From positions 1-46,775 of the forward strand of contig JBHLMP010000030.1 in the NCBI GenBank assembly GCA_048938025.1: a DNA stretch of 46,775 nt. The letters are read 5' to 3'. Source of the stretch: Promethearchaeota archaeon. GTDB lineage: Archaea > Asgardarchaeota > Lokiarchaeia > Sigyniarchaeales > SOKP01. The first letter of the stretch is position 1. Every line of letters begins with the position of its first letter. Of this stretch, positions 3,901 to 32,888 are shown in pieces. The position numbers and the translations under genes were made by a program. The notes beneath the pieces are model-generated. The model was not told the DNA's origin. It searched no databases and saw nothing but the letters and a program-made list of their open reading frames with translations.

Positions 3901-4033
3901 ATCATAAAGGACTAATTAATTCTTCTTTAAAAATTTAATATTTTACAATCATCTTTTTAACATTTTACTAATTCTTAAATTATTAATTTCTTTAAGGTAA
4001 ATTATCAAAAATTATTAGGATAGTTAAGAGAAA

Positions 4034-4567
4034 ATGCTTGAAGGTAAGAATGTGAATTTGAGGATTTGTGAGAAAGAGGACTTACCACTAGTTACTGAAT
4101 GGGTTAATGATCCCGAGTTCTTTGGTGAATTTTTTTCTCCAATACAGAGATCCAGAATAGATATAGAAAACGTACAGGATAATAATCCTTTTGATTTTGA
4201 GAGGTTTATTATTGAGAAGAAAGATGGAATCAAAATTGGTCTTATATATCATTTTTGCATGTTGCATCCTATGGAGAAATTATTGGAAATCGGATATGCT
4301 CTAGTTCAAAATGAAAGGAGCAAAGGCTATTGCACTGAAGCTGCCAAGATTATGGTTGACTATTTGTTTCTTTCAAAAGATATAGTATGTATACAAGCCC
4401 TTACTGATGTTGATAATATAGCTTCTCAGAAGGTTTTAGAAAATGCTGGTTTTAAAAAGGAAGGAGTGATTCGTAAACGTTTTTTCACAAGAGGAGAATG
4501 GAGAGATAGTTGGTTTCATAGTATTCTAAGAGAAGAATGGAAAGAACCAAAAATTTTAAAAAAATAA
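4034..4567 (+). CDS. RimJ/RimL-type GNAT acetyltransferase
   Basis: EIGYAL...RSKGYCTEA; NIASQKVLENAGFKKEG; SILREEW. Confidence 0.92.
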   Translation: MLEGKNVNLRICEKEDLPLVTEWVNDPEFFGEFFSPIQRSRIDIENVQDNNPFDFERFIIEKKDGIKIGLIYHFCMLHPMEKLLEIGYALVQNERSKGYCTEAAKIMVDYLFLSKDIVCIQALTDVDNIASQKVLENAGFKKEGVIRKRFFTRGEWRDSWFHSILREEWKEPKILKK

Positions 4568-4588
4568 TTAATAGAAAATTATTACTTA

Positions 4589-4906
4589 TTAATCTTTTTT
4601 CAAAATCAGTTTGTTTATAGGTATATCTTGATATTCTTCACTTGGATTCTCACGTCTAATAGTTAACGGCAGGATTTTAGATTTTAATTCTAATTGTGCG
4701 ATCTTTATAGGATCTATCAGGTTTCTGGGTTTCTCAATTAGAATAGGTGCACCAAAGCTTAACTGCAGTGCTCTTGCACCAACGATTCTAGCTTTCTCAT
4801 ATCTAGTTAAAAAGATTGGCCCAATCTTAACATACTTCCTGACTTCCTTATAAAGTTTTCTTAATTCCCGAGATTCTAAGAAACTAGACATGGTTTGATA
4901 AACCAT
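4589..4906 (-). CDS. rpoK: DNA-directed RNA polymerase subunit K (Rpo6/RPB6)
   Basis: LTRYEKARIVGARALQLSFGAP and ELKSKILPLTIRR motifs. Confidence 0.97.
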   Translation of the reverse strand: MVYQTMSSFLESRELRKLYKEVRKYVKIGPIFLTRYEKARIVGARALQLSFGAPILIEKPRNLIDPIKIAQLELKSKILPLTIRRENPSEEYQDIPINKLILKKD

Positions 4907-5010
4907 AAAAATAAGTAATTAGATTTGTAAAAGTATGATATCATATAATCTTTTCGATTTTAAAAGTAATTAATGTAAATGTATAAGATATTATAGCTAA
5001 ATATAATAAA

Positions 5011-5112
5011 TGGGCCAAGGGAGAATCGAACTCCCGATCTCCCGCATGTGAGGCGGGTATCTTTGGCGCTATAAAATTAGCAAATTATCCTATACCACTA
5101 GATCATTGGCCC
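5011..5112 (-). tRNA. tRNA-Val(CAC) with a ~30-nt intron in the D-arm (intron about 5062-5091)
   Basis: The reverse complement folds as: acceptor GGGCCAA/TTGGCCC plus A73; anticodon arm CCCGC-CTCACAT-GCGGG; T arm GGGAG-TTCGATT-CTCCC. The D-arm is interrupted by extra sequence. CCA is not encoded. Confidence 0.93.
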
Positions 5113-5307
5113 GGTGTTGTATATATTTGAAATAATAAATAATATGAATTAAATTTTACTTAATGATATAATTGAAATCGACTTATTAATTTATTAGTAA
5201 ATTAATTTAAGAATTTAAGAATTATTTAATGATCCTATAAAGTCTATTAGTTTAAATAATTTTTTTAAATTTTTCTATTATAAACCGAATTGGAATAAAA
5301 TTCTCTG

Positions 5308-7698: not shown

Positions 7699-7837
7699 TT
7701 TTGAGTTATAAAGATTAATTTAGGTTATTAAAACTATAAAAAAGTTTTTTATTCTTTTCAATAATAATTAATAATATTATTGAATTTAATTCAGTTGTAT
7801 TATATTTTTTAGAATGATTATTTGAGCGAGAAAAGAT

Positions 7838-8422
7838 ATGATAAAGTTTAAAGTTGTTGTTGCTGGGGCCAAAAATGTTGGAAAAACAAGCTTGATTCGT
7901 AGGTATGCGACAGGGAAATTTGATAAATCAACATTATCTACAATTGGTGTTGATTTTGAGACAAAAAAAGTTGTAGTTGATAATACAGAAATTTTATTGA
8001 ATATTTGGGATTTTGCAGGTGAAGAACGATTTCGGGTCTTATTTCCTTCTTATATATCTGGAGCTTCTGGAGCTTTGATGCTATATGATGTTACAAATAA
8101 GGATTCATTAAATGATCTTTATGATTGGATAAATGTCATCGCATCTGTTCCAAATGCACCTAAAACAAAAATTTTGATTGAAGCAAAGATTGATTTAGAA
8201 CGCAAGGTAAAAAGAGAGGATGGATTGAAGGTGTTTGAAAAGTTTAAGTTTCAGGGGGATTTAATTAGTACTTCTTCTAAAACGGGAGATAATGTTGAAA
8301 AAGCTTTCGAAATGCTTGGAAGAGAAATAATAAAAAATTCTTTAAGAAAATGTACTAAATGTGGAGAATTATATCCCTTAGAAATGAAGTTTTGTCAATA
8401 TTGTGGAACTAAAACCATATAA
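7838..8422 (+). CDS. Rab/Ras-like small GTPase with C-terminal zinc ribbon
   Basis: G1 GAKNVGKTS, G2 STIGVDF, G3 WDFAGEERF, G4 variant AKID, G5 TSSK; tail CTKC...CQYCG. Confidence 0.95.
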   Translation: MIKFKVVVAGAKNVGKTSLIRRYATGKFDKSTLSTIGVDFETKKVVVDNTEILLNIWDFAGEERFRVLFPSYISGASGALMLYDVTNKDSLNDLYDWINVIASVPNAPKTKILIEAKIDLERKVKREDGLKVFEKFKFQGDLISTSSKTGDNVEKAFEMLGREIIKNSLRKCTKCGELYPLEMKFCQYCGTKTI

Positions 8423-8595
8423 AGCTCTTGCTCTTTATATTTGCTTGATTATTTTTCTCTTTTTATAGAACAAAGAATTTTAGCATTAAATATAATTTTT
8501 ATTTCTTAAAAATGCTTTAATCTTAAAGAAAAATTTATTTACCAGAATAAATAAAAAAAAGTATATTAAAGGTTATTGAAGAATAGTAAAGGTTA

Positions 8596-9678
8596 TTGAA
8601 GTTGTATTACAATTTTAATGAAGATATTCAAGAGATAATTAACCGATTAAAAAAGGAAAATATTACTTTTGAGAATAAAGTAATTTTAGTAACTGGTGGA
8701 GCAGGTTTTCTCGGCTCATGGGTGTGTGATGTGCTGGTAGAACAGGGTGCGTATTGCATCTGTTTAGATAATTTAACCTCAGGGCAACCTGAAAATATAA
8801 TGCATCTTATGTTGAAAGACAATTTTCGCTTTGTTAATCACGATATTTCTTATCCTATATACTTTGGCTTTTCATACCATCCATTAGGAATCTGTATTGA
8901 TGATATTAAAAGAATTGACATTGTTATGCATATGGCAAGTCGAGCTTCCCCTTTTGAATTTACAGAAGAACCCATATCTATTTTGAGAAGTAATACATTA
9001 GGGACATTGAACACTTTAGGCATTGCAAAATTCCATAATGCTATTTTCTTTTATACAAGTACCTCTGAAGTCTATGGAAATCCACCAAAAGAAGCAGTTC
9101 CTACACCAGAAAGTTATTTTGGACATGTAAACCCTGTTGGACCTAGAAGCTGTTATGATGAGTCCAAAAGAGCAGGAGAAGCATTTATTAAAGCATATGA
9201 ACTTCAACATCAAATGAGAACAAAAATCGTAAGAATTTTTAACACATCAGGACCTAGAATACGACATGGACCTGAATTTGGAAGAGTTGTTCCCAATTTC
9301 ATACACCAAGCCATACATGATGAAGATATTATTGTTTTTGGAGATGGATCACAAACTAGATCTTTTATCTATGTAGTCGATGAGATTGAAGGGATACTTA
9401 AAATGGTTCAAAAAGATGAAGCCATTGGAGATGTTATTAATTTAGGTAATAATAAGGAATATACCATTCTCGAATTAGCTAATATCATAAAAGATTTAAC
9501 GAATTCTAACTCAAAAATTATATTTAAACCATTGCCTATTGATGATCCAGTCCGTAGGTGTCCTGATATACAAAAAGCAAAGGAAATTCTCAATTGGGAA
9601 CCAACAACGTCTCTAAAGGACGGTTTGAAAAAAACTATTGCTTGGTTTAAAGATAATGAGCGTAAAAGGCAAGAATAA
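8596..9678 (+). CDS. UDP-glucuronate decarboxylase (UDP-xylose synthase)-like extended SDR
   Basis: TGGAGFLG, ASRASP, TSTSEVYG, GPRSCYDESKR, GDGSQTRSF, DDPVRRCPDI. Confidence 0.9.
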   Translation: MKLYYNFNEDIQEIINRLKKENITFENKVILVTGGAGFLGSWVCDVLVEQGAYCICLDNLTSGQPENIMHLMLKDNFRFVNHDISYPIYFGFSYHPLGICIDDIKRIDIVMHMASRASPFEFTEEPISILRSNTLGTLNTLGIAKFHNAIFFYTSTSEVYGNPPKEAVPTPESYFGHVNPVGPRSCYDESKRAGEAFIKAYELQHQMRTKIVRIFNTSGPRIRHGPEFGRVVPNFIHQAIHDEDIIVFGDGSQTRSFIYVVDEIEGILKMVQKDEAIGDVINLGNNKEYTILELANIIKDLTNSNSKIIFKPLPIDDPVRRCPDIQKAKEILNWEPTTSLKDGLKKTIAWFKDNERKRQE

Positions 9679-10180
9679 TGAAAAAATAAACCTAAAGATC
9701 AGTAATAAACAGTTTGAGATTATCTTAAAAATCTGTTTAATTATTGGAATTATCATAATTTCAGGGTTTATAATCTATTACATTTTCACTCCTGAGCCCG
9801 GATATGTTACTTTCGGAATTCTAAATGAAGATCAGGAAGCTGAAGATTATCCAACCGAGGCGACTGTTAATGAGAGTATTCACTTTTACCTCACTGTCGA
9901 AAATTACTTAAATAAAAAATTTAACTTTCGAGTTAAAATAAAGAAAGGGGATAATTTTACGGTATTTAGTACTGTAAAGGGAACAAATGGAACTCTTGAC
10001 TTTATAAGTGATAATTTTACTTTAAAAAGTAATGAGAAGTGGATTTCTGAAAAATTGAATGTTTCATTCTCAGAAGTAGGAACAAATCAAATAATTTTTA
10101 CTGAATTGTGGCAAATCATTAACGATTTTGAAGAAAAATTTTATAGTATCCTGTGGCTCAGATTGAACGTAACCGCTTAA
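9656..10180 (+). CDS. DUF1616-like membrane-anchored protein
   Basis: One N-terminal TM helix, then FGILN...AEDYPT...LWLRLNVT beta-rich domain. ATG at 9656 preferred over TTG at 9638. Confidence 0.65.
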   Translation: MSVKGKNNEKINLKISNKQFEIILKICLIIGIIIISGFIIYYIFTPEPGYVTFGILNEDQEAEDYPTEATVNESIHFYLTVENYLNKKFNFRVKIKKGDNFTVFSTVKGTNGTLDFISDNFTLKSNEKWISEKLNVSFSEVGTNQIIFTELWQIINDFEEKFYSILWLRLNVTA

Positions 10181-10182
10181 TT

Positions 10183-11553
10183 TTATCCCCCTATTACTCG
10201 AAAATTCCCCACTTTTACATAGGGGGCCTGGAAAGAACCATAAATTTTAAATTCTTTCGATACAGCCTCTATATTTTTAAATAGGTCTAAAAGGTTAATA
10301 CCAAACATAGTTTCATTTAATGGCTCCTTAATTTCTCCATTTTTAATTAAATTTCCATGTAGAATTAGACCTGAAAAGTCTCCGGTTGAAATATTAGGAG
10401 AATCTCCAGTATAATCTAAAAGAATTCCTTCTTTGATTTCATTTATTATCTCATCTTTAGAGAGATCTCCTGGTTTCAGAAGAAAATTAGAAGCACCTAT
10501 AGAAGGTATTGAACTATAGGAATTTCGAGATGCATTGCCTGTACTTTCAATGTTATCTTTTCCAGCAGTATAACTGTTATGCAATAATCCTGTTTTAAGA
10601 AATTTTCCTCTTTCAAATATCTTTTTATTTTTACAAGGGACACCTTCACCATCAAAAGATGTAGAACCAGTAGCACCATCAATTAAAGCATTGTCTTCAA
10701 TATTTAAATAATTGGGCCCTATTATTTCTCCTCTCTTATCGATCAGAAAACTTCTTTTATATTGGAAAGATTCTGCATTAACAGCTAACGCTATTGGATT
10801 TAAAATTAAATTAATTGTACCGAAAGGTGTTAACATTAAAGTAGTTTTCATACTTTTTATTTTTATACGATTTAAGTTTCGTTTTGCTTTTTCTAAAGCA
10901 TTAATTGCTATATTTCTTGCACTTATATTCTTCAACATCCTTTCAGATTGCCAATCATAGCCAAAAGAAGTTTCATTACTAACTTTATCTTTAACAATTA
11001 TATTTGAAGATATTGAACAACTGGTCTCTTTTCCCGTTATAAATAAACCATTTGAGTTAAAAATGTGAGTTTTAGTATAATTGGATAGAAAATTACCAGA
11101 TTGAGAAATCGCTAATTCATCTTTACTGCATACGTGAATTAAATCTTCAACATATTTTAGAGATTCGTCAATTTCTAAATTTTTTAAATTATTATCGTAT
11201 AAATTCTTCACATCTGGGTACTTATTATATTGATTAGGTAAGTTCTTAAAATCAAGGTCTATAGTACCGGCATTCATCATCTTAAGAGCTATAACTATCA
11301 TCTTTTCAATTGATTTTTTTTCTACTCTATTAGTAAAAGCAAACCCTAGGGAACCTTTTTTATTAATTACTCTAATAGCGGTCCCATAATCATCTCCTAC
11401 CTCACTATTTTTTACAGAATTTTCTTCAATTTCAATATTAACATAATTATTTTTCCCAAAGAATATTTCAGCACATTTCAGATCAGAGTTACTTCGCTCG
11501 GCTAATTTTAATCCATAATTTGCCAAGCTATAAACATCAGAATTATGCTCCAT
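10183..11553 (-). CDS. pmbA: TldE/PmbA family protein
   Basis: FDGEGVP, STGNASR, STGDFSG, NGEIKEP; no HExxxH; abuts tldD. Confidence 0.92.
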   Translation of the reverse strand: MEHNSDVYSLANYGLKLAERSNSDLKCAEIFFGKNNYVNIEIEENSVKNSEVGDDYGTAIRVINKKGSLGFAFTNRVEKKSIEKMIVIALKMMNAGTIDLDFKNLPNQYNKYPDVKNLYDNNLKNLEIDESLKYVEDLIHVCSKDELAISQSGNFLSNYTKTHIFNSNGLFITGKETSCSISSNIIVKDKVSNETSFGYDWQSERMLKNISARNIAINALEKAKRNLNRIKIKSMKTTLMLTPFGTINLILNPIALAVNAESFQYKRSFLIDKRGEIIGPNYLNIEDNALIDGATGSTSFDGEGVPCKNKKIFERGKFLKTGLLHNSYTAGKDNIESTGNASRNSYSSIPSIGASNFLLKPGDLSKDEIINEIKEGILLDYTGDSPNISTGDFSGLILHGNLIKNGEIKEPLNETMFGINLLDLFKNIEAVSKEFKIYGSFQAPYVKVGNFRVIGG

Positions 11554-12999
11554 TTAATTTAAACCCCCAACCGTTATATCTTCAGTTCTTATATATGGTC
11601 CACCATCACATACTCTAATACTTTGACCACCTTTTCCACAGATTCCATCTGAATAATTCATAGTTTTTCCGATAGCAGAAATTTTATTAAGTACTTCAAG
11701 TGTTAAGCCAGAGAGAGATACATCTCGCATTAACTCTCCTTTTTCTCCATGTTCGATTTTATATGAGAGCTTACACTTAAATTGAAAATTTCCTGTCGTA
11801 GGATCTGTGTATCCATATTGAAAATCTTCACATAATACTCCATTTTTTGTATCCTCAATTATTTCTTCATATTCCCAATCTTTTGGTAATAAATAAGTAA
11901 AACCCATCCTAACTTGTGGTCTTGAACTACATGAATTTGCTCTACCATGCCCATTAGATGGAACTGCCATTCTTGAAGATGTTTCTAAGCTATGTAAATA
12001 GTTTATTAATATGCCATTTTCAATAATAATTGTTTTTTGCGAAGGAGTTCCCTCCTCATCGATAAAATAACTGCCAAATAATTCATATGGTAAATTAAAT
12101 TTTTTGCCTTGATTCATAGTCGGATCATCGATAATTTTTATATCATCCATAGCCACTTTTAATCCAATTTTTCCTTCTAATATACTTTCCTTATTTAAAA
12201 CTAAATCTGCTTCACAAGCATGTCCAAAAGCTTCATGTATGAAAGTTCCTGTTAATTTTGGATCCATTATAACTGTAAATTTACCACCAACAGGAGATTT
12301 TGCATTTAGTAAGTCTACTGCTTCCTTAGCTGTTTTTTCACTTAAGTTATTTGCTGTTTCTGTTTCAATTATCTCAAAACCTCCAATTCCTCCAATAGAA
12401 TTTATGGATCTTTGAAGGATACCTTTCTCTTTGGCATAAATTAAACTAAATAACCTTAAAAATGATAAATCTTGAACAATATGGTGCCCAAAAGAACTAA
12501 AAATCAAATCTTGGGAGTGCCCATCTAAATATAAAGTATGTGTATTTTTTATTTTTGGTGAACATTCTGAGGCGATTTTCTCATGACGCTTTACTATTTG
12601 TATTTTTTCATCAATGCCAATATCCCCTAATCTTTTTTTACAAGTAATTTTAAAATTTTTAATTAAGGGGTCTCTATTTCTAATTTTAAATTTATTTTTA
12701 CATAAAGATTCTGATAATTTAGCTAATTTTACTGCTTTTAAAAATCCGTTAATAATAGTGTTCCTATTTGGATTTTTTAGAACATTAAAACCCCAACCTC
12801 CATTAATAAAAGTTCTAATTCCACATTCGATAATTTCATATGATGATATTTCCTTGCTTTTTTGGTCAGTAAAGTCTAGATTAGTTCCCGTTTTCACTCC
12901 AATTCGAATATCCCAGTATTCAATTTTGTCTTTCGCTATTCTTTGTAATTCTTTATTTAATTTTTCATCTACTATTTTCAAATCTTCTGCGAGTTCCAA
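11554..12999 (-). CDS. tldD: TldD metalloprotease
   Basis: HEAFGHACEAD zinc motif; NGHGRA...PQVRM; CGKGGQ...GGPY. Confidence 0.94.
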   Translation of the reverse strand: MELAEDLKIVDEKLNKELQRIAKDKIEYWDIRIGVKTGTNLDFTDQKSKEISSYEIIECGIRTFINGGWGFNVLKNPNRNTIINGFLKAVKLAKLSESLCKNKFKIRNRDPLIKNFKITCKKRLGDIGIDEKIQIVKRHEKIASECSPKIKNTHTLYLDGHSQDLIFSSFGHHIVQDLSFLRLFSLIYAKEKGILQRSINSIGGIGGFEIIETETANNLSEKTAKEAVDLLNAKSPVGGKFTVIMDPKLTGTFIHEAFGHACEADLVLNKESILEGKIGLKVAMDDIKIIDDPTMNQGKKFNLPYELFGSYFIDEEGTPSQKTIIIENGILINYLHSLETSSRMAVPSNGHGRANSCSSRPQVRMGFTYLLPKDWEYEEIIEDTKNGVLCEDFQYGYTDPTTGNFQFKCKLSYKIEHGEKGELMRDVSLSGLTLEVLNKISAIGKTMNYSDGICGKGGQSIRVCDGGPYIRTEDITVGGLN

Positions 13000-13099
13000 G
13001 ATAATCTTTTTGTGTGATTATTCTATTAATTTATAGAAGAATTAATAATTAAACAAAATCTTTACGAAGTTTATTAGAAAAAATTATTATTATAAACTT

Positions 13100-13330
13100 T
13101 TAAATTTGGGTTTTTAACTCATAAAAATCCTTCTTTTCCATGTTATTCTTCAATTCCTTAATAATTGTTATTGCATTTTTAGTAGAACAAGTTCTAGAAA
13201 ATTTTAGGGAATTTTTAATAAGAAAAGATCGATTGCATTTCCAGCATTTCTTAATCCTAATCAGTCTTGCTGAATAGAACCATTCACCGCAATGATAACA
13301 ACGAAAAAAATAGAATTTATGATTAGACAT
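13100..13330 (-). CDS. Small zinc-ribbon protein (DUF1922-like)
   Basis: FRCYHCG...KKCWKCNR, two CxxC pairs. Confidence 0.7.
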   Translation of the reverse strand: MSNHKFYFFRCYHCGEWFYSARLIRIKKCWKCNRSFLIKNSLKFSRTCSTKNAITIIKELKNNMEKKDFYELKTQI

Positions 13331-13521
13331 TGTAAATTATAATTAAAAGTATGATTTATAATAGATTAAAGATAACTAGTTTTTAGGTTTTTTAAACTGA
13401 TTAATAAGAAGCATTTTATATTATTTTTTACCTCAAATACAACAATAAGAGTTAATAAATATCTAATAAAAAAGATAATATTACTATCCTTCATTTTTTC
13501 AATTAGGGAAATTAATTTTAG

Positions 13522-14892
13522 ATGAAAAAAGAAATGAGTGAGAAATTTATCCACCCAATTGAGACACGCTATCGAACTGAGATAGCAGCTCTTTTCATGG
13601 AGGAAAAAAAATTAGAATACTGGCTAAAAGTAGAAGCCGCACTAGCTAAAGTTCATGCGAATTTAGGTAATATTCCAAAAACAGCCGCTGAAGAGATAAT
13701 TAAAAAGGCTAATAATAAATATGTAAAAATTGACAGAGTTAAAGAAATAGATAGTCAAATCCACCATGATTTAATGGCAATGGTTAAGGGTTTAGCTGAA
13801 CAGTGTGAAGGTGATGCAGGAAATTATGTTCATTTAGGAGCTACTAGTTATGATATTGAGGATTGTGCTTTAGGTTTACAATTAAAAGAGGCATTAATCT
13901 ATATTGATGATGCATTAAAAAAATTATTAAAAGAATTATTAAGAATTATCTCCGATAAAAAAGATTTAGTTTGTATTGGACGAACACATGGCCAACATGC
14001 AGTGCCAACTACATATGGAATGCGATTTGGAGTATGGGCATATGAAATTGATAGACATTTGGATCGTATCTTAGAAGTTTTAGATCGTATTTCATATGGG
14101 AAAATGTCTGGTGCTGTGGGTACAATGGCGAGTTTTGGGAATAAAGGCATAGAGATCCAAAGTGGAGTGATGAAAGAATTAAACTTAAATCCTGTACTTT
14201 TAGCTAATCAAATTGTACAAAGAGATAGACATGCAGAAGTAATATTTATTACTGCCTTAATTGGGCAAACTCTTGCAAAAATAGCCCGAGAAAATCGTAT
14301 TTTACAGCGAAATGAGATAGCTGAAATGTTTGAACCATTTATACAAAATCAAGTTGGAAGTTCCACAATGCCTCATAAGAGAAATCCTCATAAATCAGAA
14401 AGAATCTGTAGTTTAGCAAGAGTCATTAAATCTAATGTTATTACGGCATTAGATAACATAGAGTTAGAAGATGAGAGAGATCTAACAAATTCTGCCTCTG
14501 AAAGAGTTATTTTTGCAGAAAATTTCATATTACTAGACTATATAATCAAACAATTAACCCGTAATCTTGAGGGAATTGAATTCAATGAAAAAAAAATAGA
14601 AGAAAACCTAAATCTTACTAAAGGTGCTTGTTTATCAGAAAAACTTATGGTAGAATTAGTTAATAGGGGAATAGGACGACAAGAAGGACATGAAATTTTG
14701 AGAAAAGCTGCAATTGTAGCCAGGCGTGAAGATAAATTTATGAAAGATATTTTGTATGAAAATCAAGTGGTCAATAAACACTTCTCTAAGGATGAATTAG
14801 ATAATTTATTGGATCCACACCAATATATAGGGAAAGCAGTTGAAATAACCGAAAATCTTTTAAAAATTTTGAAGAACAAATATAATTGGTAA
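13522..14892 (+). CDS. purB: Adenylosuccinate lyase
   Basis: HLGATSYD, GRTHGQHA, GSSTMPHKRNP. Confidence 0.97.
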   Translation: MKKEMSEKFIHPIETRYRTEIAALFMEEKKLEYWLKVEAALAKVHANLGNIPKTAAEEIIKKANNKYVKIDRVKEIDSQIHHDLMAMVKGLAEQCEGDAGNYVHLGATSYDIEDCALGLQLKEALIYIDDALKKLLKELLRIISDKKDLVCIGRTHGQHAVPTTYGMRFGVWAYEIDRHLDRILEVLDRISYGKMSGAVGTMASFGNKGIEIQSGVMKELNLNPVLLANQIVQRDRHAEVIFITALIGQTLAKIARENRILQRNEIAEMFEPFIQNQVGSSTMPHKRNPHKSERICSLARVIKSNVITALDNIELEDERDLTNSASERVIFAENFILLDYIIKQLTRNLEGIEFNEKKIEENLNLTKGACLSEKLMVELVNRGIGRQEGHEILRKAAIVARREDKFMKDILYENQVVNKHFSKDELDNLLDPHQYIGKAVEITENLLKILKNKYNW

Positions 14893-22199: not shown

Positions 22200-22883
22200 T
22201 TAAGATTTTTTATTTCGCATACTACGAGGATAATTCGCAAATAAACTCTCAAAGTGCTTTTGGAACCTCTCGGCATGTTCTTTGGAAATAATTTTGGGTT
22301 CCCCTATTTGTAATGCACCCCAATACATTTTTGCAAGTTTTTCCACCAATTCAGCAAATTTTACTGCATGTCCTAAAGATTTACCACAAATAATTACTCC
22401 ATGATTAGCTAATAATGCAGCATTTTTAATACCTAATGCTTGGAGTGCTGTTTCTCCTATCTCATCTGTGTGCGCTTTTCCAAATGGAGCAACATCAACA
22501 GAACCTCCTAAGAAGACAACCTGCTCTTCCATTATGATTGGTATATTTTTTCTTACAATAGATAATATTGTAGCAAAAGTCGAATGCGTATGAATTACAC
22601 ATTGAACTTTTGGTCGAGATTCATAAATAGCTATATGGAGCTTTACTTCTGTTGATGGGAGTTTTTTAGCACTTATTGTTGTACCATCAAGACTCATATG
22701 AACGATATCTTCTATCTTTAAAGATTCATATTGATTAAAAGATGGAGTGATGAAAAATTCATCTTTTTTTACATTTCTCACGCTTATATTTCCTTCTCCA
22801 GCCTCAACTAACCCTTTGGCAAAAATAGCTTTTGCTCCTTCAACTAATTCAGACCTAAGTTGTTCTTCCTTACTTATTACCAT
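22200..22883 (-). CDS. Class II aldolase/adducin family (FucA-like)
   Basis: EGNISVR, ITPS, PSTEVKLH, HTHS, LANHG. Confidence 0.93.
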   Translation of the reverse strand: MVISKEEQLRSELVEGAKAIFAKGLVEAGEGNISVRNVKKDEFFITPSFNQYESLKIEDIVHMSLDGTTISAKKLPSTEVKLHIAIYESRPKVQCVIHTHSTFATILSIVRKNIPIIMEEQVVFLGGSVDVAPFGKAHTDEIGETALQALGIKNAALLANHGVIICGKSLGHAVKFAELVEKLAKMYWGALQIGEPKIISKEHAERFQKHFESLFANYPRSMRNKKS

Positions 22884-23074: not shown

Positions 23075-24166
23075 ATGACTCGTATAATTTTACATTGCGA
23101 TTTAGATTGCTTTTTTGCTGCTGTGGAGATTAGAGACAATCCAGAATATAGAGGAAAGCCAGTGATTATCGGAGCAGATCCAAAGGAAGGAAAAGGAAGA
23201 GGTGTAGTATCTACATGTTCATATGAAGCCCGTGAATTTGGACTTCATTCTGCTATGCCAATTTCTCAAGCATTTAAATTATGTCCACATGGGATATATT
23301 TAAGGCCTAATTTCATTAAATACAAAGCATCTTCGGACAGTATACATACTATTTTGAAAGGTTATGCTCCTGATCGTTATCAAAAAATAGGACTAGATGA
23401 GGCATATTTAGAGGTTACAGATAGTTGTGCTAATTTTCAGGAAGCTAGAGATTTAGCTGATGAAATTCGAGAAGAAATACATAAAAAAGTTGGAATTACA
23501 ATTTCAATTGGTTGTGCTCATACAAAATCTCTAGCAAAAATCGCTTCAGATTATAATAAACCTAACGGTACAACTGTGGTTACTCCTGAAAATATGTTAG
23601 AATTCCTCAAATCAATGGATATAACAAGAATTCCGGGTATAGGGAAAAAATCTAAGAAATATTTTAATATTAAAGGTATTAAAACGATTGGTGATATAAT
23701 TAGAACACCCTTAAATAAAATGATTGAAATTTTTGGAAAACATGGGAAGTGGGTTTGGAATATAGCTCATGGAATTGATAATAGAGAAGTAAAAGAATTT
23801 GATGAAGAAAGAAAATCAATCAGTAAAGAAAGGACTTTTTATGAGGATACAGATAACTTCCAAGTCATTTTAAAAAAAATGGAAGAGATAAATAACAAAA
23901 TTCACAAAACTCTAGAAAATAATGATATTTATTACCGTACCATAACATTAAAAATAAGATTTGAAGGATTTTTAACATACACTAGAGCAAAAACCCTTCC
24001 AATTCCGATTAGAGATAAAAATAAAGCATTAAACATTGTTTTAGCTTTATATAAGGAATTTAAAGATAATGAAAGGAAAGTAAGGTTAATAGGAATAAGA
24101 TTTTCGAATTTTGAACAAAATTCAAAGATTAAACAAATGCGCCTAATTAACTTTGCAGTTTCTTGA
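23075..24166 (+). CDS. dinB: DNA polymerase IV (Y-family)
   Basis: HCDLDCFFAAVE, STCSYEAR, LDEAYL, AKIASDYNKPNG, VRLIGIR. Confidence 0.96.
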   Translation: MTRIILHCDLDCFFAAVEIRDNPEYRGKPVIIGADPKEGKGRGVVSTCSYEAREFGLHSAMPISQAFKLCPHGIYLRPNFIKYKASSDSIHTILKGYAPDRYQKIGLDEAYLEVTDSCANFQEARDLADEIREEIHKKVGITISIGCAHTKSLAKIASDYNKPNGTTVVTPENMLEFLKSMDITRIPGIGKKSKKYFNIKGIKTIGDIIRTPLNKMIEIFGKHGKWVWNIAHGIDNREVKEFDEERKSISKERTFYEDTDNFQVILKKMEEINNKIHKTLENNDIYYRTITLKIRFEGFLTYTRAKTLPIPIRDKNKALNIVLALYKEFKDNERKVRLIGIRFSNFEQNSKIKQMRLINFAVS

Positions 24167-25061
24167 GATGATCTATAACTTTATCATGAATGACACCATT
24201 AGAAGCTATAACTGCTGGTTCACTCCACATTAAAGTATCACTCTTAAACCAAATTGGTCGATTACTTGAATCAGTTACTTTTCCTCCTGCTTCTGTTACT
24301 ATCAAATATCCAGGTAAAAAGTCCCATGAAAAAGAATGTTTTCGGTCAATTGGTTTAATGTATAAATCAGCACTACCATCAGCAATCTTACAGAACTTCA
24401 ACATACTATCAATTCTAATTAATTTATTAATTCCTACTTTTTTCGCAAATTCTAAAACCCATGGTTTATCGTAATGCAATGAATGACATAATACAGCATC
24501 TTTTAACGAATCTTGATTACTTACTTTTATTTCTTTAAATTCTTTTCCTCCATATGATGCATAAACACCTATATTTTTTACCGCAGAAAACACTCCTAAT
24601 CCTTCTTCATTATAATTTGGAACCGAAATAGCAGATATTTTAGGGTCAGATTCTACCATTAACCCAATACCAACTGCATACGATAATCCTTCGACATATC
24701 CTTGAGTTCCATCGATAGGATCAACAGTCCATTCTCTTTTAGAAAATCTACCTCGATAATTTATTGTTTCTTTAATTTCTCCAACTTTAATTTTTAAATC
24801 ATCAAAACATTCATAGATTAACTTTTCAGAATTTATATCTATTAAGGAGCCTTCCTCTTCAGCTAAAATATGATCTTCCGGGAATTTTGCTCGCAAATTA
24901 TCTACAATGTAAATTTGGGTAGCTAAATCTGCTAAAGTTACTGGCGATTGATCTCGTTTTTCAAATGATTTAAATCCTTTTTCTTTGAACCATTCTGGAA
25001 TTTTATGAGCTTTTTTGACTAGACTAATAGCTAACTCAGATTCTTTATTATATATATTCAT
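24147..25061 (-). CDS. Inositol monophosphatase superfamily, 3'(2'),5'-bisphosphate nucleotidase-like
   Basis: DQSPVTLAD, AEEE, DPIDGT, WD...EAGGKVTD. Confidence 0.88.
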   Translation of the reverse strand: MNIYNKESELAISLVKKAHKIPEWFKEKGFKSFEKRDQSPVTLADLATQIYIVDNLRAKFPEDHILAEEEGSLIDINSEKLIYECFDDLKIKVGEIKETINYRGRFSKREWTVDPIDGTQGYVEGLSYAVGIGLMVESDPKISAISVPNYNEEGLGVFSAVKNIGVYASYGGKEFKEIKVSNQDSLKDAVLCHSLHYDKPWVLEFAKKVGINKLIRIDSMLKFCKIADGSADLYIKPIDRKHSFSWDFLPGYLIVTEAGGKVTDSSNRPIWFKSDTLMWSEPAVIASNGVIHDKVIDHLKKLQS

Positions 25062-25131: not shown

Positions 25132-25980
25132 TCAATCTTCTTTATTCACCTTAAATCTTCTAAAATTCATCGTTTCCAAATCTATAATTACATATATTAA
25201 ATGATTTTCATGTTGATGAGACTGACCTGGTTGTACACATATTGTCTTTCCTAGTTTCGAGTTCCATCTTCCTGAAACTTCTGGACTCTCATGAATATGC
25301 CCATGAAAAGAGAGAAGCGGTTGATTTCTTTTTAAAAATTCATAAACGGCAATAGATCCTACTTTTCGACCATCATGACATACATCAAGTCCCAAATTAC
25401 TAGGTGGCACGTGAATTATATAAATTGCTTTTTTTATATTATCTGGTTTGATCAATTGATTCATTTCTTCCTCAATTGTAGGAAGAGTTTTTATATATGA
25501 TGACCAATCTTCAATTTTTATCCATCCATTTGGATTGGAGATGTATTGCTTCCCAATCTGTTTTGGTAATGTGAAATCTCTGTTATCCATCCTTGCCCTA
25601 TCTTTAAGTCCAAAAGGAAGATCTGTCACCCAGTTCATCCCAATAAATTCATAACCATGATCTTTTATCTGGAATCTTCTCTGGGCAACATTAAATACAT
25701 GGGAGTATTTATCGCAAATCTCTTGAAATAGTTCATCAAATATTATACAATCATCATTACCAAGTTGACATGCTAAATACAATCCTGATGAATTGCATTT
25801 GGAAAAATAATCATCAAGAAACCCTGTTATAAATTTATCTTGATATAACAAATTCCCTTTAAAGGGAAGCATATCTCCTCCATTTATTATCATATCAATG
25901 TTTAAGGAAATAGCTTCATGAAAAACTCTTTCATATTTCCATTTTATTCCGTGTATATCTGTGACTAGAAGGAGCTTCAA
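25132..25980 (-). CDS. Metallophosphoesterase (Icc-related)
   Basis: TDIHG, GGD, GNDD, HVPP, HGHIHE. Confidence 0.9.
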   Translation of the reverse strand: MKLLLVTDIHGIKWKYERVFHEAISLNIDMIINGGDMLPFKGNLLYQDKFITGFLDDYFSKCNSSGLYLACQLGNDDCIIFDELFQEICDKYSHVFNVAQRRFQIKDHGYEFIGMNWVTDLPFGLKDRARMDNRDFTLPKQIGKQYISNPNGWIKIEDWSSYIKTLPTIEEEMNQLIKPDNIKKAIYIIHVPPSNLGLDVCHDGRKVGSIAVYEFLKRNQPLLSFHGHIHESPEVSGRWNSKLGKTICVQPGQSHQHENHLIYVIIDLETMNFRRFKVNKED

Positions 25981-26139: not shown

Positions 26140-28218
26140 TTAAAATAGCAATCTTCTTATCTCTTTTTCATAATCAATCGTTAAAGGAAAAGTATGCTTT
26201 AATTTAAGTTGTTCATTTCTACTTTTTATATCAAATTCATTATTAAGTTCTTTCAAAAGCCATAGTAACTTATACAGTTCAATTTTTTTCATAAAATCTT
26301 TGTCAATTTTATAATATTGTGAGTAACCTTCATAAAAAGCATCTTTAAAATTATATCTCTCCAAGTTTTTTAGTGTTAAATATTCTATTTTAACAAAATC
26401 TTGTGCTCTACAACCAACACACCAATCATCAAAATCTATTAATCCATTTATTAAAAAATTGGCAGATTCTTCTTTCACAATAATATTTTGACCTTGAAAA
26501 TCATTATGTATTAGGGCAAAATCAATTTGATCTTCAATTAATGCCTCATTATCTCTAATGTAATCATTTATCTCTTTTATGAATTCAAATTTGTGCCTTT
26601 TAGCTTCTTGAATTTCAACTTCTAATTTTTTATTAAATATCTCTGAATAGGCATCTTTTTTCTTACCAATATCTTTTACATTTTCATAAGAAGAGTTAAA
26701 ATTTATTTTATGTAGTTTTCCTAAAATTATTCCTAAGTTCTTAAATAAATTTGGAAATTTTATCTTCCTTAAATTAATTTCTTCATTTAAAGATTGTCTT
26801 AAATACCAAATTAATGGTTTTCCATGAATATAATCTTGTACTGTGAAGATATATGGAACAGTCTCTTTAGTTTCGTCGTAATAAATCAAATTTCCTACAG
26901 GAACAGTAGGAGGATTATCTTTATGGAAAATATAAGCCCCCATTTTACTTGATACAATACTATTTACCTGACCTGTGAGATTGTCTATATCCCCGCTTAA
27001 GGTTCCATCTAAAAATGGATATAATAATTTTTCTTTAACGATATTTTCAAATGGAAAGTTTTCACAAGTTCTAAATCTAAAAATTAAATGACTATTTTCA
27101 AAATTTACTCTATAAATTGTATTTATTGTGGCATCAAATGGACCTATTATTTTTTTTAACTTTCCTTGTTCAATTAGAACATCTACATTAGAGAATGTTT
27201 TAATAATCTCCTTAAATTGATAGAGTTCTCTTTTTCCTAAGAAATATAACTTGTAAATTTGCTTTTGGTTAATTAAATAATTCACAGTTGCTTCTATTCT
27301 TCCTTTTGTTATTTCATCTAAATCTATTTGACGTTTAGGAGAAATTATACTAATCTCTTTAATAGGAGTTTTCAATTGTTCTTTATAGAGATGAAGAAAC
27401 GCGTACTTTAATCCACGTCTTTCTTTTCCTTCATTTATTTTAATGTCATATATCTTATTTCTTATATCATTTATTTGATCTTGTAATTGATGAACTTCTA
27501 ATATTTTATCTTCAAGAGCAAAATAGTATAATTTTGAGCTGAGATTTACTAAATTGCCAATACTAGATACTATTCCACTAAATCTTCTTTCTTCTAATGA
27601 AATTAATTGGAAGAAGTTTTGAAAACTGTCTTCCATCCCGCAATGAACTGAAAAATCATCATTTAATAGTTGAATATAGGATTTACAGTTTTTTATATTG
27701 TAAAAAGAATCATTTAATCCTTTCAGATTTGGGAAATCTCTTAAATAATTTAATATTTCGGGTTCTATCTCATTTCCAGCAAATTGATCTGGATTGTTGT
27801 GCAAATAAATCTGGTTTTTAAAATTAATTGCCCCTAATATGTTTTCAAAATATAATTTTAGACTCTCATTAGAAATTTTTTCTGAAATTGGGGGACTAAT
27901 CATAAAATTGATATCATTAAATCTTTTCGCCAAATCTTCCATTTGATCTATTGAATTCTCGACTTCATTGCTATAAACTCCAACCATAATAGGATTTTTA
28001 CCTCCTGAGGCTTCAAGTGCTAAATTAATAAGCTTAATCTTCTTGTTTAATTTATCTGAAAAAAGTATTCCCTCTCCCGTATTTCCAAAAAGAATAAGTG
28101 AATCTGCTCCATTTGTTAATATGTGACGAATTAAAAGAGAATTTAATTCTTCATTAATTTCAAAATCTTTTTCATAGAAAGTAACAGTATCGCAGATAGC
28201 ACCACTAATAGTTTGCAT
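26140..28218 (-). CDS. Fusion of a DHDPS/NAL-family TIM barrel (catalytic residues substituted) and an APH/choline-kinase-like phosphotransferase
   Basis: N-half: GADSLILFGNTGEG, LHNNP, KGLNDS. C-half: QDYIHGKPL, LGKLH, IHNDFQGQNI, LIDFDD. Confidence 0.85.
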   Translation of the reverse strand: MQTISGAICDTVTFYEKDFEINEELNSLLIRHILTNGADSLILFGNTGEGILFSDKLNKKIKLINLALEASGGKNPIMVGVYSNEVENSIDQMEDLAKRFNDINFMISPPISEKISNESLKLYFENILGAINFKNQIYLHNNPDQFAGNEIEPEILNYLRDFPNLKGLNDSFYNIKNCKSYIQLLNDDFSVHCGMEDSFQNFFQLISLEERRFSGIVSSIGNLVNLSSKLYYFALEDKILEVHQLQDQINDIRNKIYDIKINEGKERRGLKYAFLHLYKEQLKTPIKEISIISPKRQIDLDEITKGRIEATVNYLINQKQIYKLYFLGKRELYQFKEIIKTFSNVDVLIEQGKLKKIIGPFDATINTIYRVNFENSHLIFRFRTCENFPFENIVKEKLLYPFLDGTLSGDIDNLTGQVNSIVSSKMGAYIFHKDNPPTVPVGNLIYYDETKETVPYIFTVQDYIHGKPLIWYLRQSLNEEINLRKIKFPNLFKNLGIILGKLHKINFNSSYENVKDIGKKKDAYSEIFNKKLEVEIQEAKRHKFEFIKEINDYIRDNEALIEDQIDFALIHNDFQGQNIIVKEESANFLINGLIDFDDWCVGCRAQDFVKIEYLTLKNLERYNFKDAFYEGYSQYYKIDKDFMKKIELYKLLWLLKELNNEFDIKSRNEQLKLKHTFPLTIDYEKEIRRLLF

Positions 28219-28410
28219 TTCTAATCCCTTCAGTTGCTTATACTAAAAAAGAAACCTTGATCAGTTTTAAAATTTAGAATTAGGAGTTTTCAATCAATAT
28301 AATTTAGTATATTTTAGAATAATAATATTTTATTTTATAAAATTAAAATATAATTAATTTTCTTAATAATAATCATTTATTGGATTTAAATAAATTTGAA
28401 TTTCTGATTT

Positions 28411-29148
28411 TTGGGGTCTAAAATTTTTTGTAAAATCGATGGTAAAGATATTCCTCTTGTTACTACTGGAACTAGCCCATTCATAGGAGCAGATCAATTT
28501 GGATTTAAAGGACTTGAGTGGCGTCAAAGATTTTTAAATAACCCGGATAAAATGCTGGAAATTTTAGAAACAAGTTATCAAGCTGGTGCACGAGGGATTG
28601 AAGCTATCCCAACAGGGAAAATATTAGATGCTGCAAAAGTTATGATAGATACTTATAGTGATTATGTTATTACAGGATCAACTTATCCAGGAATAGATCC
28701 TAAAATTGATGTACTTATAGAAAATGGTGCCAAATTAATATTTGTTCACGCAGTTATTTCAGATAGAAAAGACAGAATAATGACTAAACTTTTAGATGCT
28801 ATTTCGAATCGCGGAATAATTCCTGGGATTGCCACACATGAACCAGTATCAATGATAAGATATGTAATAGAAAATAATTTAAATGTAAGAGTGTTTTTAA
28901 TACCTTTTAATGCAAACCGAATATTTATGGGTAATGCTAAGGAATTAGAAGAAATTGTTGACAATACAAAAAAATATCATTTTATAGGAATGAAGACTTT
29001 AGCTGCTGGAGCAATTATCCCTAAAATTGCATTCAATTATGTTTCTAGGCATAATATAACTGCTGTTACTATTGGAATGGTAACAAAACAACAAGCAGAA
29101 GAATCAACTAAAATTGCTTTAAAAGCATTAAGTAGTAAAAAAGTATAA
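28411..29148 (+). CDS. Conserved archaeal TIM-barrel protein (aldo-keto reductase-like fold)
   Basis: GTSPFIGADQFG, GIATHEP, LIPFN, GMKTLAAG. Confidence 0.65.
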   Translation: MGSKIFCKIDGKDIPLVTTGTSPFIGADQFGFKGLEWRQRFLNNPDKMLEILETSYQAGARGIEAIPTGKILDAAKVMIDTYSDYVITGSTYPGIDPKIDVLIENGAKLIFVHAVISDRKDRIMTKLLDAISNRGIIPGIATHEPVSMIRYVIENNLNVRVFLIPFNANRIFMGNAKELEEIVDNTKKYHFIGMKTLAAGAIIPKIAFNYVSRHNITAVTIGMVTKQQAEESTKIALKALSSKKV

Positions 29149-31379: not shown

Positions 31380-32888
31380 TCATAATTCATCAACTTTTTT
31401 CTTTAAATTCTTCCATTCTAGATAGATTTGCTCATAATCATTTGAGACATCGAGATCAATAGAGAATTTATCAAAATTAATTAGTTCTTTTATCATATTC
31501 TTGTAATCTGTATATTTTTTTAAACCAATTAGTGAATTCATAGCACATCCGATAAAAGCAGAATCTCTACAAACAGGTATATTTAAATCTTTTTTTAGAA
31601 TATTTGATAAAATTTTTAAAAATTCATTAGATTTTGCCATTCCACCAGCGCAAAAGGTTGTGATTTTTGATTTAGTAAATTTGGTTAGGACTTTAAAATT
31701 TTCAAGGATTCCATAACAAATGTTTTCAATACTACTTCTAATAAAATTTTCAATTTTAGGATGATCTTCAGATACTAGAGTTGGAGGAGGAAAGACAAAC
31801 ACCCCTCTCTTAAGTGTAGTTTGATCTTTTATATTCATAATATCAGGTCCTAAGAAGGCGAAAGTTGAATCTGAACCGTGTTTTACTTTTTTTAAAAATT
31901 CTTCAACGATAGAATTTTTATCTCCACTTAAATCTTCTAATAAGCAATCTTTCAGCCAATCATAAACAATTCCAGTATTACCCGGATTACCTTCGATTAA
32001 CCATTTTCGTTTAAGGGAATGAAATAATGTCCAATGATTGTATTTTGGATCTAAAATAGGTTCATTTACTACTAAGTGAAGTGGTCCTGTAGAACCTAAA
32101 CTAATTCCTACATTTCCTTCTTCAATAACGCCCATCCCTAATAGAGTCGCCTGGGTATCTCCTCCCGTTTTAATGACAGGAGTTGAGTTCTTTTTAATTT
32201 CAAAATATTTAACTAACTCTGATTTTAATTCTCCAATAATAGTCCCTGAATCTACAAATTCAGGAAAAAAATCAGGATCAAAATTGAAAGCATCAATTAT
32301 TTCAGAACTCCATTTTCCTTTTTTAATATCAAGAATTTGAGATTCCGAAGCAGAAGACAAATCTGAACAGAATTCTCCCGTGAGTTTATATACAATCCAA
32401 TCATCTAACATCAGAACCTTATTTATTTTTTTATATAATTCTTCTTCCTCTTCTTTAAACCATAATAAACGTGATAAGCAGAATAATATTGAAGGGCTAT
32501 GACCTGTAATATTAAATAATTCTTCTTCTGAAAATTCATCTTCAATTAAATAAGCACTATCAATCCCACGAACATCTATATTTGGACCTCCATATATTAC
32601 TTCTCCTTGTTTGTCTAAAAAAACAACTGCCATTCTTTGAGCACATGAGGATATGCCAATTATATTTTTATTTTTATTTTTTCTTAATAATTCATGAATG
32701 CAATGTTGGATTTTATTCCATAAATCTTTCATATCAAACCGTTTTGCAAATCCATCAATATCCTCGTCAACTATGATCAATTCTTGGTTAGTAGTTGATT
32801 CTAATTTTAGTTGATCAGAAACTAGGCCCACTTTAACACTATGAGAAGATATATCTATCGCTAAAATTTTATTATTAGAATGTTCCAT
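31380..32888 (-). CDS. FGGY carbohydrate kinase (YoaC/LsrK-like)
   Basis: AIDISSHSVK, AQRMAVVFLDKQG...GPNIDVRG, GGDTQ, AGGMAKS. Confidence 0.9.
   Translation of the reverse strand: MEHSNNKILAIDISSHSVKVGLVSDQLKLESTTNQELIIVDEDIDGFAKRFDMKDLWNKIQHCIHELLRKNKNKNIIGISSCAQRMAVVFLDKQGEVIYGGPNIDVRGIDSAYLIEDEFSEEELFNITGHSPSILFCLSRLLWFKEEEEELYKKINKVLMLDDWIVYKLTGEFCSDLSSASESQILDIKKGKWSSEIIDAFNFDPDFFPEFVDSGTIIGELKSELVKYFEIKKNSTPVIKTGGDTQATLLGMGVIEEGNVGISLGSTGPLHLVVNEPILDPKYNHWTLFHSLKRKWLIEGNPGNTGIVYDWLKDCLLEDLSGDKNSIVEEFLKKVKHGSDSTFAFLGPDIMNIKDQTTLKRGVFVFPPPTLVSEDHPKIENFIRSSIENICYGILENFKVLTKFTKSKITTFCAGGMAKSNEFLKILSNILKKDLNIPVCRDSAFIGCAMNSLIGLKKYTDYKNMIKELINFDKFSIDLDVSNDYEQIYLEWKNLKKKVDEL

Follow-up and report, generated by a model that had tools for sequence, protein, structure and literature searches.

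A single gene on the minus strand of the window, by which we mean the whole 46,775-nucleotide stretch of Promethearchaeota DNA analysed here, encodes a protein of 692 residues that joins a barrel of the dihydrodipicolinate synthase/N-acetylneuraminate lyase (DHDPS/NAL) family to a kinase of the aminoglycoside phosphotransferase (APH) fold. We conclude with moderate confidence that this protein is an ATP-dependent small-molecule kinase whose barrel has been retained for something other than catalysis, plausibly assembly or stability. An earlier reading made from the sequence alone (hereafter the sequence-only reading) had described one uninterrupted frame across the domain junction, with a set of aldolase and kinase motifs in it, and had proposed that the barrel senses 2-oxo acids or sugar acids for the kinase. 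The frame and all of the motifs are found where it placed them (Table 1); the sensor proposal fared less well, as discussed below. The junction at approximately 27217-27243 is bridged by contigs from the runs of three other studies (X4, 27131-28400; X5, 27133-27860; X8, 27095-27840), with no indel listed. The fusion is not an assembly artefact, as 129 full-length fused homologues and these independent contigs span it.

The N-terminal half belongs to a well-defined family. Residues 5-257 match Pfam PF00701 (DHDPS) with 81.1 bits against a cut-off of 22.1 (E 7.3e-23), and a family-model search of the genome also recovers the gene (83.6 bits). The AlphaFold2 (AF2) model of this domain has a predicted local distance difference test score (pLDDT) of ~90 and eight beta/alpha repeats, with beta2 at 40-43, beta5 at 137-141 and beta6 at 165-170, so that the active-site positions lie where expected. 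Foldseek superimposes it on solved members of the DHDPS/NAL family (5c54, E 1.6e-16, TMt 0.87, root-mean-square deviation (rmsd) 2.9), and stand-alone relatives of the N-half stop at about residue 325.

Residue equivalences were taken from HMMER alignments to the solved KDG aldolase 4uxd and to C. jejuni DapA. In these alignments Asn169 occupies the column of the Lys in (S)VKGVKDS / NIYGVKEA and His140 that of the Tyr in L(I)YN(I/V)P, which bears out the sequence-only assignment of N169 to the Schiff-base Lys and of H140 to the catalytic Tyr. Moreover, the first Thr of GTTGE is matched by Asn46, and both Tyr of PYY are matched by Pro109-Pro110. As judged from the aligned residues, the predicted catalytic loss is wider than first listed, Asn46 and Pro109-Pro110 being part of it. 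We take the corresponding E. coli DapA numbering to be K161, Y133, T44 and Y107. The combination expected of a functional Schiff-base aldolase, a Lys at the end of beta6 and a Tyr with its Thr and PYY partners, is absent from the window protein. Its scores also fall short of every relevant NCBIfam equivalog cut-off: dapA 77.7/206, HpaI-NOT-DapA 45.9/397, Arch_KDGaldase 39.5/390, KdgD 33/374 and nanA 18.5/382 bits. Two other, ordinary DHDPS-family genes (290 and 267 bits) are encoded elsewhere in the genome, and the window gene is therefore not a lysine-pathway enzyme. The database name "dihydrodipicolinate synthase family protein" is functionally wrong for most fused members.

The fate of the catalytic Lys was followed across relatives in a hidden Markov model (HMM) alignment of the N-domain, which retained 181 of 299 proteins (score >60, coverage of at least 230 positions), namely 129 fused and 52 N-only proteins, the latter including generic DHDPS proteins. 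The Schiff-base column reads N75, I37, K12, V2, S1, D1 and M1 among the fused proteins and K50, I2 among the N-only rows. Lys is accordingly missing from 117/129 fused proteins and kept in 12 fused and 50/52 N-only rows. One of the two N-only rows with Ile, P0126, nests among the fused proteins and is probably a fragment. The catalytic Tyr column is similarly dispersed among fused proteins (Y49, I34, H16, S8, N7, L6, M3, F2, V2, E2) and largely intact in the N-only set (Y50, H1, S1). The sequence-only reading had named a Lys retained in homologues as the observation that would count against it: the great majority of the fused homologues lack the residue, and the more distant relatives retain it. 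Lys-to-Asn and Tyr-to-His, whose fixation that reading had proposed to check, are not fixed replacements, the first column varying between N, I, K, V, S, D and M and the second being highly variable. That unfused domains keep Lys while fused ones mostly do not fits the notion that only a tethered domain survives the loss of its chemistry; the contrast should be read as a pattern rather than a test because the rows are phylogenetically dependent.

An N-domain tree of 71 representatives at 72% identity (two fragmentary rows dropped, six trait columns removed) sets the subfamily apart from generic DHDPS proteins with 100* support. Its basal branches, split as well as fused, keep K, Y and (S/T)TGE, and Tyr and TTGE persist in early Lys-less members such as P0117. 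A tree built on the full length of 51 fused proteins, likewise with the trait columns removed, gives four changes of Lys state, of which the starred branches force at least three. By genus, g5 retains K; g10 has I, the pocket being otherwise intact; g11 is mixed; in g12 the I is accompanied by decayed loops; and the window sequence has N.

The presumably non-catalytic barrel has been conserved in sequence nonetheless. Ratios of non-synonymous to synonymous change (dN/dS, Nei-Gojobori) were obtained for 49 gene pairs with identities of 78% or more, drawn from 54 full-length genes; in 40 of the 49 pairs they range from 0.125 to 0.353 in the N-domain and from 0.100 to 0.318 in the kinase half. 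Comparison of the window gene with L001, L002, L003 and L024 gave 0.128, 0.166, 0.131 and 0.217 for the N-domain and 0.191, 0.199, 0.191 and 0.318 for the kinase. The two halves have mean pairwise identities of 0.574 (N) and 0.564 (C). Both of them, the presumably dead barrel included, are under purifying selection of like strength. A gene drifting towards a pseudogene with no selected function is hardly tenable in view of these low values (0.10-0.35 in both halves, 40 of 49 pairs), the intact 692-residue frame and its presence in 51/53 genomes of the genus, even though the distribution within the family is patchy, two relatives (G170 and G252) carry in-frame stops and the kinase catalytic Asp is lost in 8/115 proteins.

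Where the barrel has changed was addressed by a rate-shift comparison of 28 Lys-less, 20 Lys-retaining and 22 generic sequences, a position being counted as relaxed when at least 85% conserved in Lys-retaining relatives and below 60% in the Lys-less clade. Fourteen positions qualify (10, 37, 47, 49, 106, 140, 169, 203, 219, 220, 264, 265, 267 and 268). They span the TGE loop, the Tyr, the Lys, the end of beta8 (219-220) and a basic motif, GKAQRGxK, which shows little or no variation among Lys-retaining relatives (G 0.95, K 0.90, Q 0.95, R 1.00). This motif may line the pocket, where it could bind an anionic substrate group. Other positions are newly fixed in the Lys-less clade: F44, L63, I64, K74, K98, N174, I175, Q204, S228-Y231, L240, E241 and D251. 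In the kinase half, compared over 21 vs 18 sequences, only two positions are relaxed, neither of them catalytic, and 28 are conserved in both groups, including G359, P360, R381, E396, H571, N572, D573, N578, D597 and D607. On this comparison, decay is confined to the old active site of the barrel.

These patterns bear directly on what the barrel does today. A metabolite-gated kinase, in which non-covalent binding of a 2-oxo acid or sugar acid by the Lys-less barrel switches the kinase allosterically, finds support in the purifying selection on the barrel, in the positions newly fixed in the Lys-less clade, in the GNTGE loop of the window protein and in residues around the old pocket that are invariant or nearly so (Gly167, Asp170, Asn141, Pro143 and Asn222). 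We nevertheless consider it unlikely. In the Lys-less clade, relaxation has reached loop 46-49, the Tyr and Lys positions, 219-220 and the basic motif at 264-268, all of which differ even between genera, and a conserved ligand site would not allow N, I, S, V, D or M at its centre. The carboxylate-binding loop, which the sequence-only reading described as kept, is so in the window protein and is degenerate in close homologues. The 2-oxo-acid or sugar-acid sensor it proposed is weakened because this loop, together with other pocket positions, is among the elements that have relaxed. An N-domain that is still an enzyme, through another nucleophile such as K166 or Schiff-base-independent chemistry, is less probable again. 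Its fold is intact at high confidence, its dN/dS is low and the window protein has a Lys three residues upstream; against this, five separate active-site elements have relaxed jointly and no alternative invariant Lys is found in the barrel strands of the homologue alignment. K166 in particular was rejected as a substitute nucleophile: its column reads K76, R22, S12, N6, I5, M3, C2, A2 and Y1 in the 129 fused proteins and is not conserved in the N-only set, and there is therefore no family-wide stand-in for the lost Lys. An assembly or stability platform, rather than a conserved 2-oxo-acid sensor, is the most likely role of the N-domain. Enzymes of the DHDPS family are known as obligate oligomers.

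The C-terminal half is a divergent member of the small-molecule kinase fold. Pfam PF01636 (APH) matches residues 465-643 with 41 bits against a cut-off of 23.2 (E 2.4e-10). Folded alone with 22 fused and split sequences, this half yields a bilobal kinase model (AF2 pLDDT 88, predicted template-modelling score (pTM) 0.88). Foldseek places APH(2'')-IVa at the top (E 2.8e-10, template-modelling score (TM) 0.52-0.67), followed by APH(9), fructosamine-3-kinase, ethanolamine kinase and homoserine kinase. In a VIA search (all against representative structures) the best match is 3tdv (Z 20.4, 287 residues aligned, rmsd 4.0), and 37 entries exceed Z 16. The scores form a plateau from 20.4 to ~16 that comprises aminoglycoside, macrolide, steroid, fructosamine, homoserine, N-acetylhexosamine, glucosamine, methylthioribose and choline kinases as well as maltokinase. 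The closest solved chain by sequence profile, 3csv, reaches only E 3e-5; a search of the ESM Atlas returned generic APH clusters only; and the Fructosamine kinase model PF03881 stays below threshold in the window protein (21.1 bits vs 22.4), a precomputed match to it being present in some homologues. A substrate cannot be transferred to the kinase because it has no specific nearest neighbour. The substrate is probably a sugar or sugar-derived.

The catalytic loop HNDFQGQN and the Mg-binding IDF, described as intact by the sequence-only reading, are indeed so in the window protein and in most homologues: among 115 Lys-less fused proteins, N578 is present in 115, D597 in 113, D573 in 107 (N7, G1 in the others) and D595 in 97. 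The same half could in principle be a protein kinase akin to SrkA/RdoA/YihE or Bud32, with the barrel as docking or substrate domain. The NCBIfam model PRK11768 (Ser/Thr protein kinase SrkA) gives E 4.4e-09, Bud32 models give E 6e-4 to 4e-3, YihE and Bud32 appear in the VIA search at Z 16.6 and Z 14.7, and one source names a homologue "RdoA". We judge this improbable, since the curated cut-offs are far from reached (SrkA/RdoA, NF008738, 36.2/194 bits; Bud32, TIGR03724, 16.8/125 bits). Moreover, the 32 best VIA neighbours (Z 16.6-20.4), above YihE at rank 33, are small-molecule, antibiotic or sugar kinases or unassigned APH entries, the Foldseek list is likewise one of APH, fructosamine-3-kinase, ethanolamine and homoserine kinases, and the conserved genetic partner is a metabolic aldolase.

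That partner is seen most clearly in relatives that are not fused. An exhaustive profile-free search returned 1011 matches at E <= 1e-3 and 34 at E <= 1e-30, among them split relatives, N-half-only proteins of ~325 residues and C-half-only proteins of ~385-400. In sister families of the order the N and then the C gene are neighbours, overlapping or 1 nt apart (L070 to L073, Table 1). The alignment of Lys-retaining N-halves returned 49 metagenome loci, of which seven match at the level of the subfamily; in 7/7 of these a kinase gene lies immediately downstream, the other 42/49 being generic DHDPS-like matches outside this count. The adjacent split genes in sister families and the 7/7 metagenome loci indicate that the conserved unit is an aldolase-kinase pair. 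Aldolases of the split form keep Lys, Tyr and the TGE loop, and the Lys-retaining relatives carry GxTGE, LYNxP and GIKDS. Their best solved matches are YagE (1.2e-28), a 2-keto-3-deoxygalactonate aldolase, C. glutamicum NAL (1.9e-25) and the KDG aldolase 4uxd (2.7e-25), with 4xky also found, and they too score below every NCBIfam equivalog cut-off. The contig of L073, which also carries L066 and L081, shows two reading frames 1 nt apart where another source has a single fused protein of 728 residues (P0124), which points either to an independent second fusion event or to assemblies that differ by a frameshift.

The surroundings of the unfused genes hint at carbohydrate metabolism, in single loci and inconsistently between lineages. 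At L070 a BNR_2 sialidase-like gene (7072-8208, plus strand) lies 18 nt upstream of the pair and a GH2 beta-galactosidase gene (10690-13692, minus strand) converges on it, a context suggestive, in this single locus, of glycan or sialic-acid-type catabolism. A phosphorylase-like gene lies near the pair of L072. At L075 and L076 an N-domain gene that stands alone and keeps its Lys lies between two MFS sugar transporters, and both genomes also carry the fused gene; L075 has a Zn-dehydrogenase in addition, and its N-half-only gene (7865-8842) is the paralogue in G170 that keeps Lys. An open reading frame (ORF) of 224 residues with no Pfam match recurs at L071 (6257-6931, minus strand), L072 (6676-7350, plus strand) and L074 (9660-10334, minus strand) with 60-93% identity, directly upstream of the split pair in the first two. 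All this points weakly to an ancestral aldolase that cleaved or formed a 2-keto-3-deoxy sugar acid and a kinase that acted on its substrate or product.

The fused form recurs well beyond this assembly, as the sequence-only reading required, and is nonetheless taxonomically narrow. A word-index search gave 190 matches at E <= 1e-3 among 7999 scored candidates; among the matches listed, 120/120 are ~620-710 residues long with PF00701 and PF01636. A scan of one genome per species gave 69 loci, all in records of Asgard metagenome-assembled genomes (MAGs); Promethearchaeota/Promethearchaeati is the current NCBI name. When 400 genomes of the phylum were searched and grouped by genome taxonomy, strong full-length matches were found only in the window's own family (90/134 genomes), by genus in 51/53 genomes of its own genus, 10/10 of g11 and 21/42 of g12. 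Outside the order there were only weak DHDPS-type matches, with 23-29% identity over residues ~4-250 and E 1e-11 to 1e-17. The subfamily does not extend beyond one order, and the fused form is limited to one family; the architecture recurs, but not throughout the Asgard archaea. An impression of an "Asgard-wide, extraordinarily conserved" protein, derived from submitter names (Hod-, Hermod-, Thor- and Odinarchaeota), was ruled out by the same genome-taxonomy search. The loci L001-L062, at 51-94% best-segment identity, carry MAG labels (Promethearchaeota, Hod-, Hermod-, Thor-, Odinarchaeota) that look inconsistent with a single-family taxonomy. Two otherwise full-length homologues have one in-frame TAA each (G170:C2:167077-169131 and G252:C18:14724-16787), and L078 (G279) is a 792-residue protein with only the kinase C-lobe in common. 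A full-text literature search, which did not cover subscription journals, turned up nothing on DHDPS+APH fusions, nor on DHDPS-like domains that lack the Lys, in Asgard archaea.

In summary, the combined data can be accommodated by the following history. The starting point would have been a two-gene module in which a class I (Schiff-base) DHDPS/NAL aldolase, closest to the 2-keto-3-deoxy-sugar-acid aldolases, was followed by an APH-fold small-molecule kinase, the two genes being translationally coupled as they appear to be in the genome loci. Both would then have fused in the window's Lokiarchaeia-type family, after which the aldolase chemistry may have become dispensable. The Schiff-base Lys was lost several times independently, first to Ile and, in the window's clade, to Asn; decay of the Tyr, the TGE loop, the end of beta8 and GKAQRGxK would have followed the loss of Lys. 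The presumably dead barrel has nevertheless been retained, with purifying selection acting on it no less strongly than on the kinase, which keeps its catalytic Asp, its Asn and its Mg-binding Asp. Within this history the fusion, the split relatives, the loss of residues with its pattern on the trees, the purifying selection, the intact kinase motifs and the fold of the kinase are observed, whereas the present work of the protein as a kinase and the non-catalytic role of its N-domain are inferred.

A more far-reaching proposal treats fusion as a ratchet: the tethered barrel loses catalysis repeatedly yet stays, gaining a new selected role in the window's clade, for instance ligand- or oligomerisation-dependent control of the kinase. 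Lys losses have so far been seen only in fused forms. We regard this proposal as doubtful, and if it is true, living lineages keep every stage, from split and active through fused and active to fused and Lys-less with the pocket present and, finally, fused with the pocket decayed.

Several observations weigh against a kinase with a non-catalytic barrel as we have described it, or limit the precision of that description. Strand beta3 carries Arg rather than the usual ATP-anchoring Lys, at a position assigned by inspection; the Arg381 column reads R107/K8 in the 115 Lys-less proteins and R in 10/10 Lys-retaining fused proteins. Arg also occupies the beta3 place in choline kinases. The catalytic Asp is replaced in 8/115 Lys-less fused homologues (N7, G1; HNNF for HNDF), L040 and P0127 among them. 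The aligned residues hint that kinase catalysis may be dispensable in some members, and some homologues may, on the same grounds, be without both activities. On the side of the barrel, Gly167, Asp170, Asn141 and Asn222 are invariant or nearly so and GNTGE is retained in the window protein itself, so that some ligand binding may persist. The number of independent Lys losses, put at three or more, is to be taken as a minimum of moderate certainty because it derives from quick tree searches on related sequences. No strong full-length match was found in complete genomes of sister genera (g2 0/5, g6 0/4, g7 0/2), and the family is therefore not essential. The full-length AF2 model (pTM 0.56, low confidence over residues 330-465) gives no orientation of the domains, and a predicted complex of the N-half (residues 1-325) with the kinase half scored 0.00, which is no call for or against binding.

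Table 1. Features of the fused gene, its neighbours in the window, and split pairs in related genomes (for the latter, positions in the locus named).
Feature	Position	Strand	Remark
Whole fused ORF	26140..28218	-	ATG start, 692 residues, stop codon 26140-26142, no internal stop
N-domain, residues 1-325	27244..28218	-	DHDPS/NAL-family TIM barrel and C-terminal helices; predicted Schiff-base dead
GNTGE, residues 45-49	28072..28086	-	equivalent of the GTTGE carboxylate-binding loop; Asn for first Thr
His140	27799..27801	-	catalytic Tyr position, beta5
Asn169	27712..27714	-	Schiff-base Lys position, end of beta6
GKERRGLK, residues 264-271	27406..27429	-	decayed form of GKAQRGxK, the basic motif peculiar to the subfamily
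Domain junction, residues 326-334, FLGKRELYQ	27217..27243	-	no low-complexity linker
C-domain, residues 335-692	26143..27216	-	APH-fold (eukaryotic-like) small-molecule kinase
Arg381, beta3 strand FRFR	27076..27078	-	place of the usual ATP-binding Lys; putative position
Kinase catalytic loop HNDFQGQN, residues 571-578	26485..26508	-	His571, Asp573, Asn578
IDFD, residues 594-597	26428..26439	-	Mg-binding Asp region; aligned to IDF of 3csv
Stand-alone class II aldolase	22200-22883		
DinB-type polymerase gene	23075-24166	+	
IMPase-family gene	24147-25061	-	
Metallophosphoesterase gene	25132-25980	-	between fused gene and IMPase-family gene
245-residue ORF	28411-29148	+	divergent from fused gene across a 192-nt AT-rich spacer
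Dehydrogenase-aldolase fusion, 560 residues	29149-30831	-	D-2-hydroxyacid dehydrogenase (PF02826/PF00389) + class II aldolase/adducin (PF00596)
FGGY kinase	31380-32888		
Split pair L070	8226-9239 (N) + 9191-10570 (C)		
Split pair L071	5131-6312 (N) + 3938-5134 (C)		
Split pair L072	7387-8415 (N) + 8403-9605 (C)		
Split pair L073	7918-9039 (N) + 6687-7916 (C)		

The surroundings of the fused gene in the window are conserved to varying degrees. A class II aldolase gene lies beside it in 64/69 loci, a DinB-type gene in 64/70 (the 69 loci and the window), an IMPase-family gene just downstream in 52/69 and an FGGY kinase gene nearby in 39/69. A homologue of at least 480 residues of the 560-residue dehydrogenase-aldolase fusion is found in 44/69 loci, and the divergent 245-residue ORF, with no Pfam match at E <= 0.001 and no PDB sequence match at E <= 1, is kept in 37/69. 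The metallophosphoesterase gene has a homologue in 8/69 loci only; elsewhere the IMPase-family gene follows the fused gene directly, at a median gap of 144 nt, and the metallophosphoesterase gene looks like a lineage-specific insertion. The DinB-type and IMPase-family genes of the window converge, their 3' ends overlapping by 20 nt. The sequence-only reading had placed the fused gene beside a sugar kinase/aldolase operon. The genes are real; the arrangement is lineage synteny rather than a partnership shared with the distant relatives. The block also holds the housekeeping genes SRP54, aIF5A and NadC, and the split pairs of sister families have none of the window's neighbours next to them. We rejected the neighbourhood as a functional clue or operon link, because the synteny over 69 loci comes from one family, where it reflects shared ancestry, and the neighbours are absent beside the split pairs.

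Pseudoenzymes and fusions of pathway partners are both well known; the present family represents a fusion of pathway partners followed by a pseudoenzyme transition. What makes it a rare case is that the whole path, from separate coupled genes through fusion and repeated loss of Lys to stepwise decay of the active site, under purifying selection throughout, can be read in living lineages of one archaeal order. The family defines an uncharacterised aldolase-kinase module, and the analysis corrects the database names of the fused members. Its wider significance is moderate, since none of the analyses run here gave a link to eukaryote-like biology and the protein is dispensable in sister genera: the family is evolutionarily instructive but taxonomically narrow.

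Compared with known systems, the N-domain shares its homologous (beta/alpha)8 barrel (PF00701) with E. coli YagE, archaeal KD(P)G aldolase, N-acetylneuraminate lyase and DapA. Unlike these aldolases, the window protein has neither the Schiff-base Lys nor the Tyr, the first loop Thr or the PYY tyrosines, and the subfamily differs further in having PP for PYY, a GKAQRGxK motif of its own and a kinase that is fused to it or genetically coupled with it. The kinase half resembles APH(2''), APH(9), fructosamine-3-kinase, type II homoserine kinase, N-acetylhexosamine 1-kinase, maltokinase and the choline/ethanolamine kinases in its bilobal fold (Z 16-20.4 over 267-306 residues), its HxDxxxxN catalytic loop and its IDF(D) Mg site; it differs in its low identity to the solved chains listed by VIA and Foldseek (9-21%), in the Arg that replaces Lys in beta3 and in the presumably dead aldolase domain at its N-terminus.

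Two further systems offer parallels for the two-domain arrangement as such. In the trehalose synthase-maltokinase couple (TreS-Pep2), whose complex 5jy7 is among the VIA neighbours of the kinase half (Z 19.0), an APH-fold sugar kinase is likewise joined physically to a carbohydrate enzyme that has a TIM barrel and serves the same pathway, and TreS and Pep2 are fused in many bacteria. The TreS barrel, however, is an unrelated and catalytically active GH13 domain, whereas the barrel described here belongs to the DHDPS family and is without catalytic residues. The trypanosomatid AdoMetDC "prozyme" is a dead homologue that is kept under selection and supports an active catalytic partner. The fused barrel is similar in being a presumably dead enzyme homologue retained under selection alongside a partner predicted to be active, with an activating role that is putative here. 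The prozyme is a paralogue of its partner; the barrel of the window protein, conversely, is an unrelated former pathway neighbour that has become covalently fused to the kinase.

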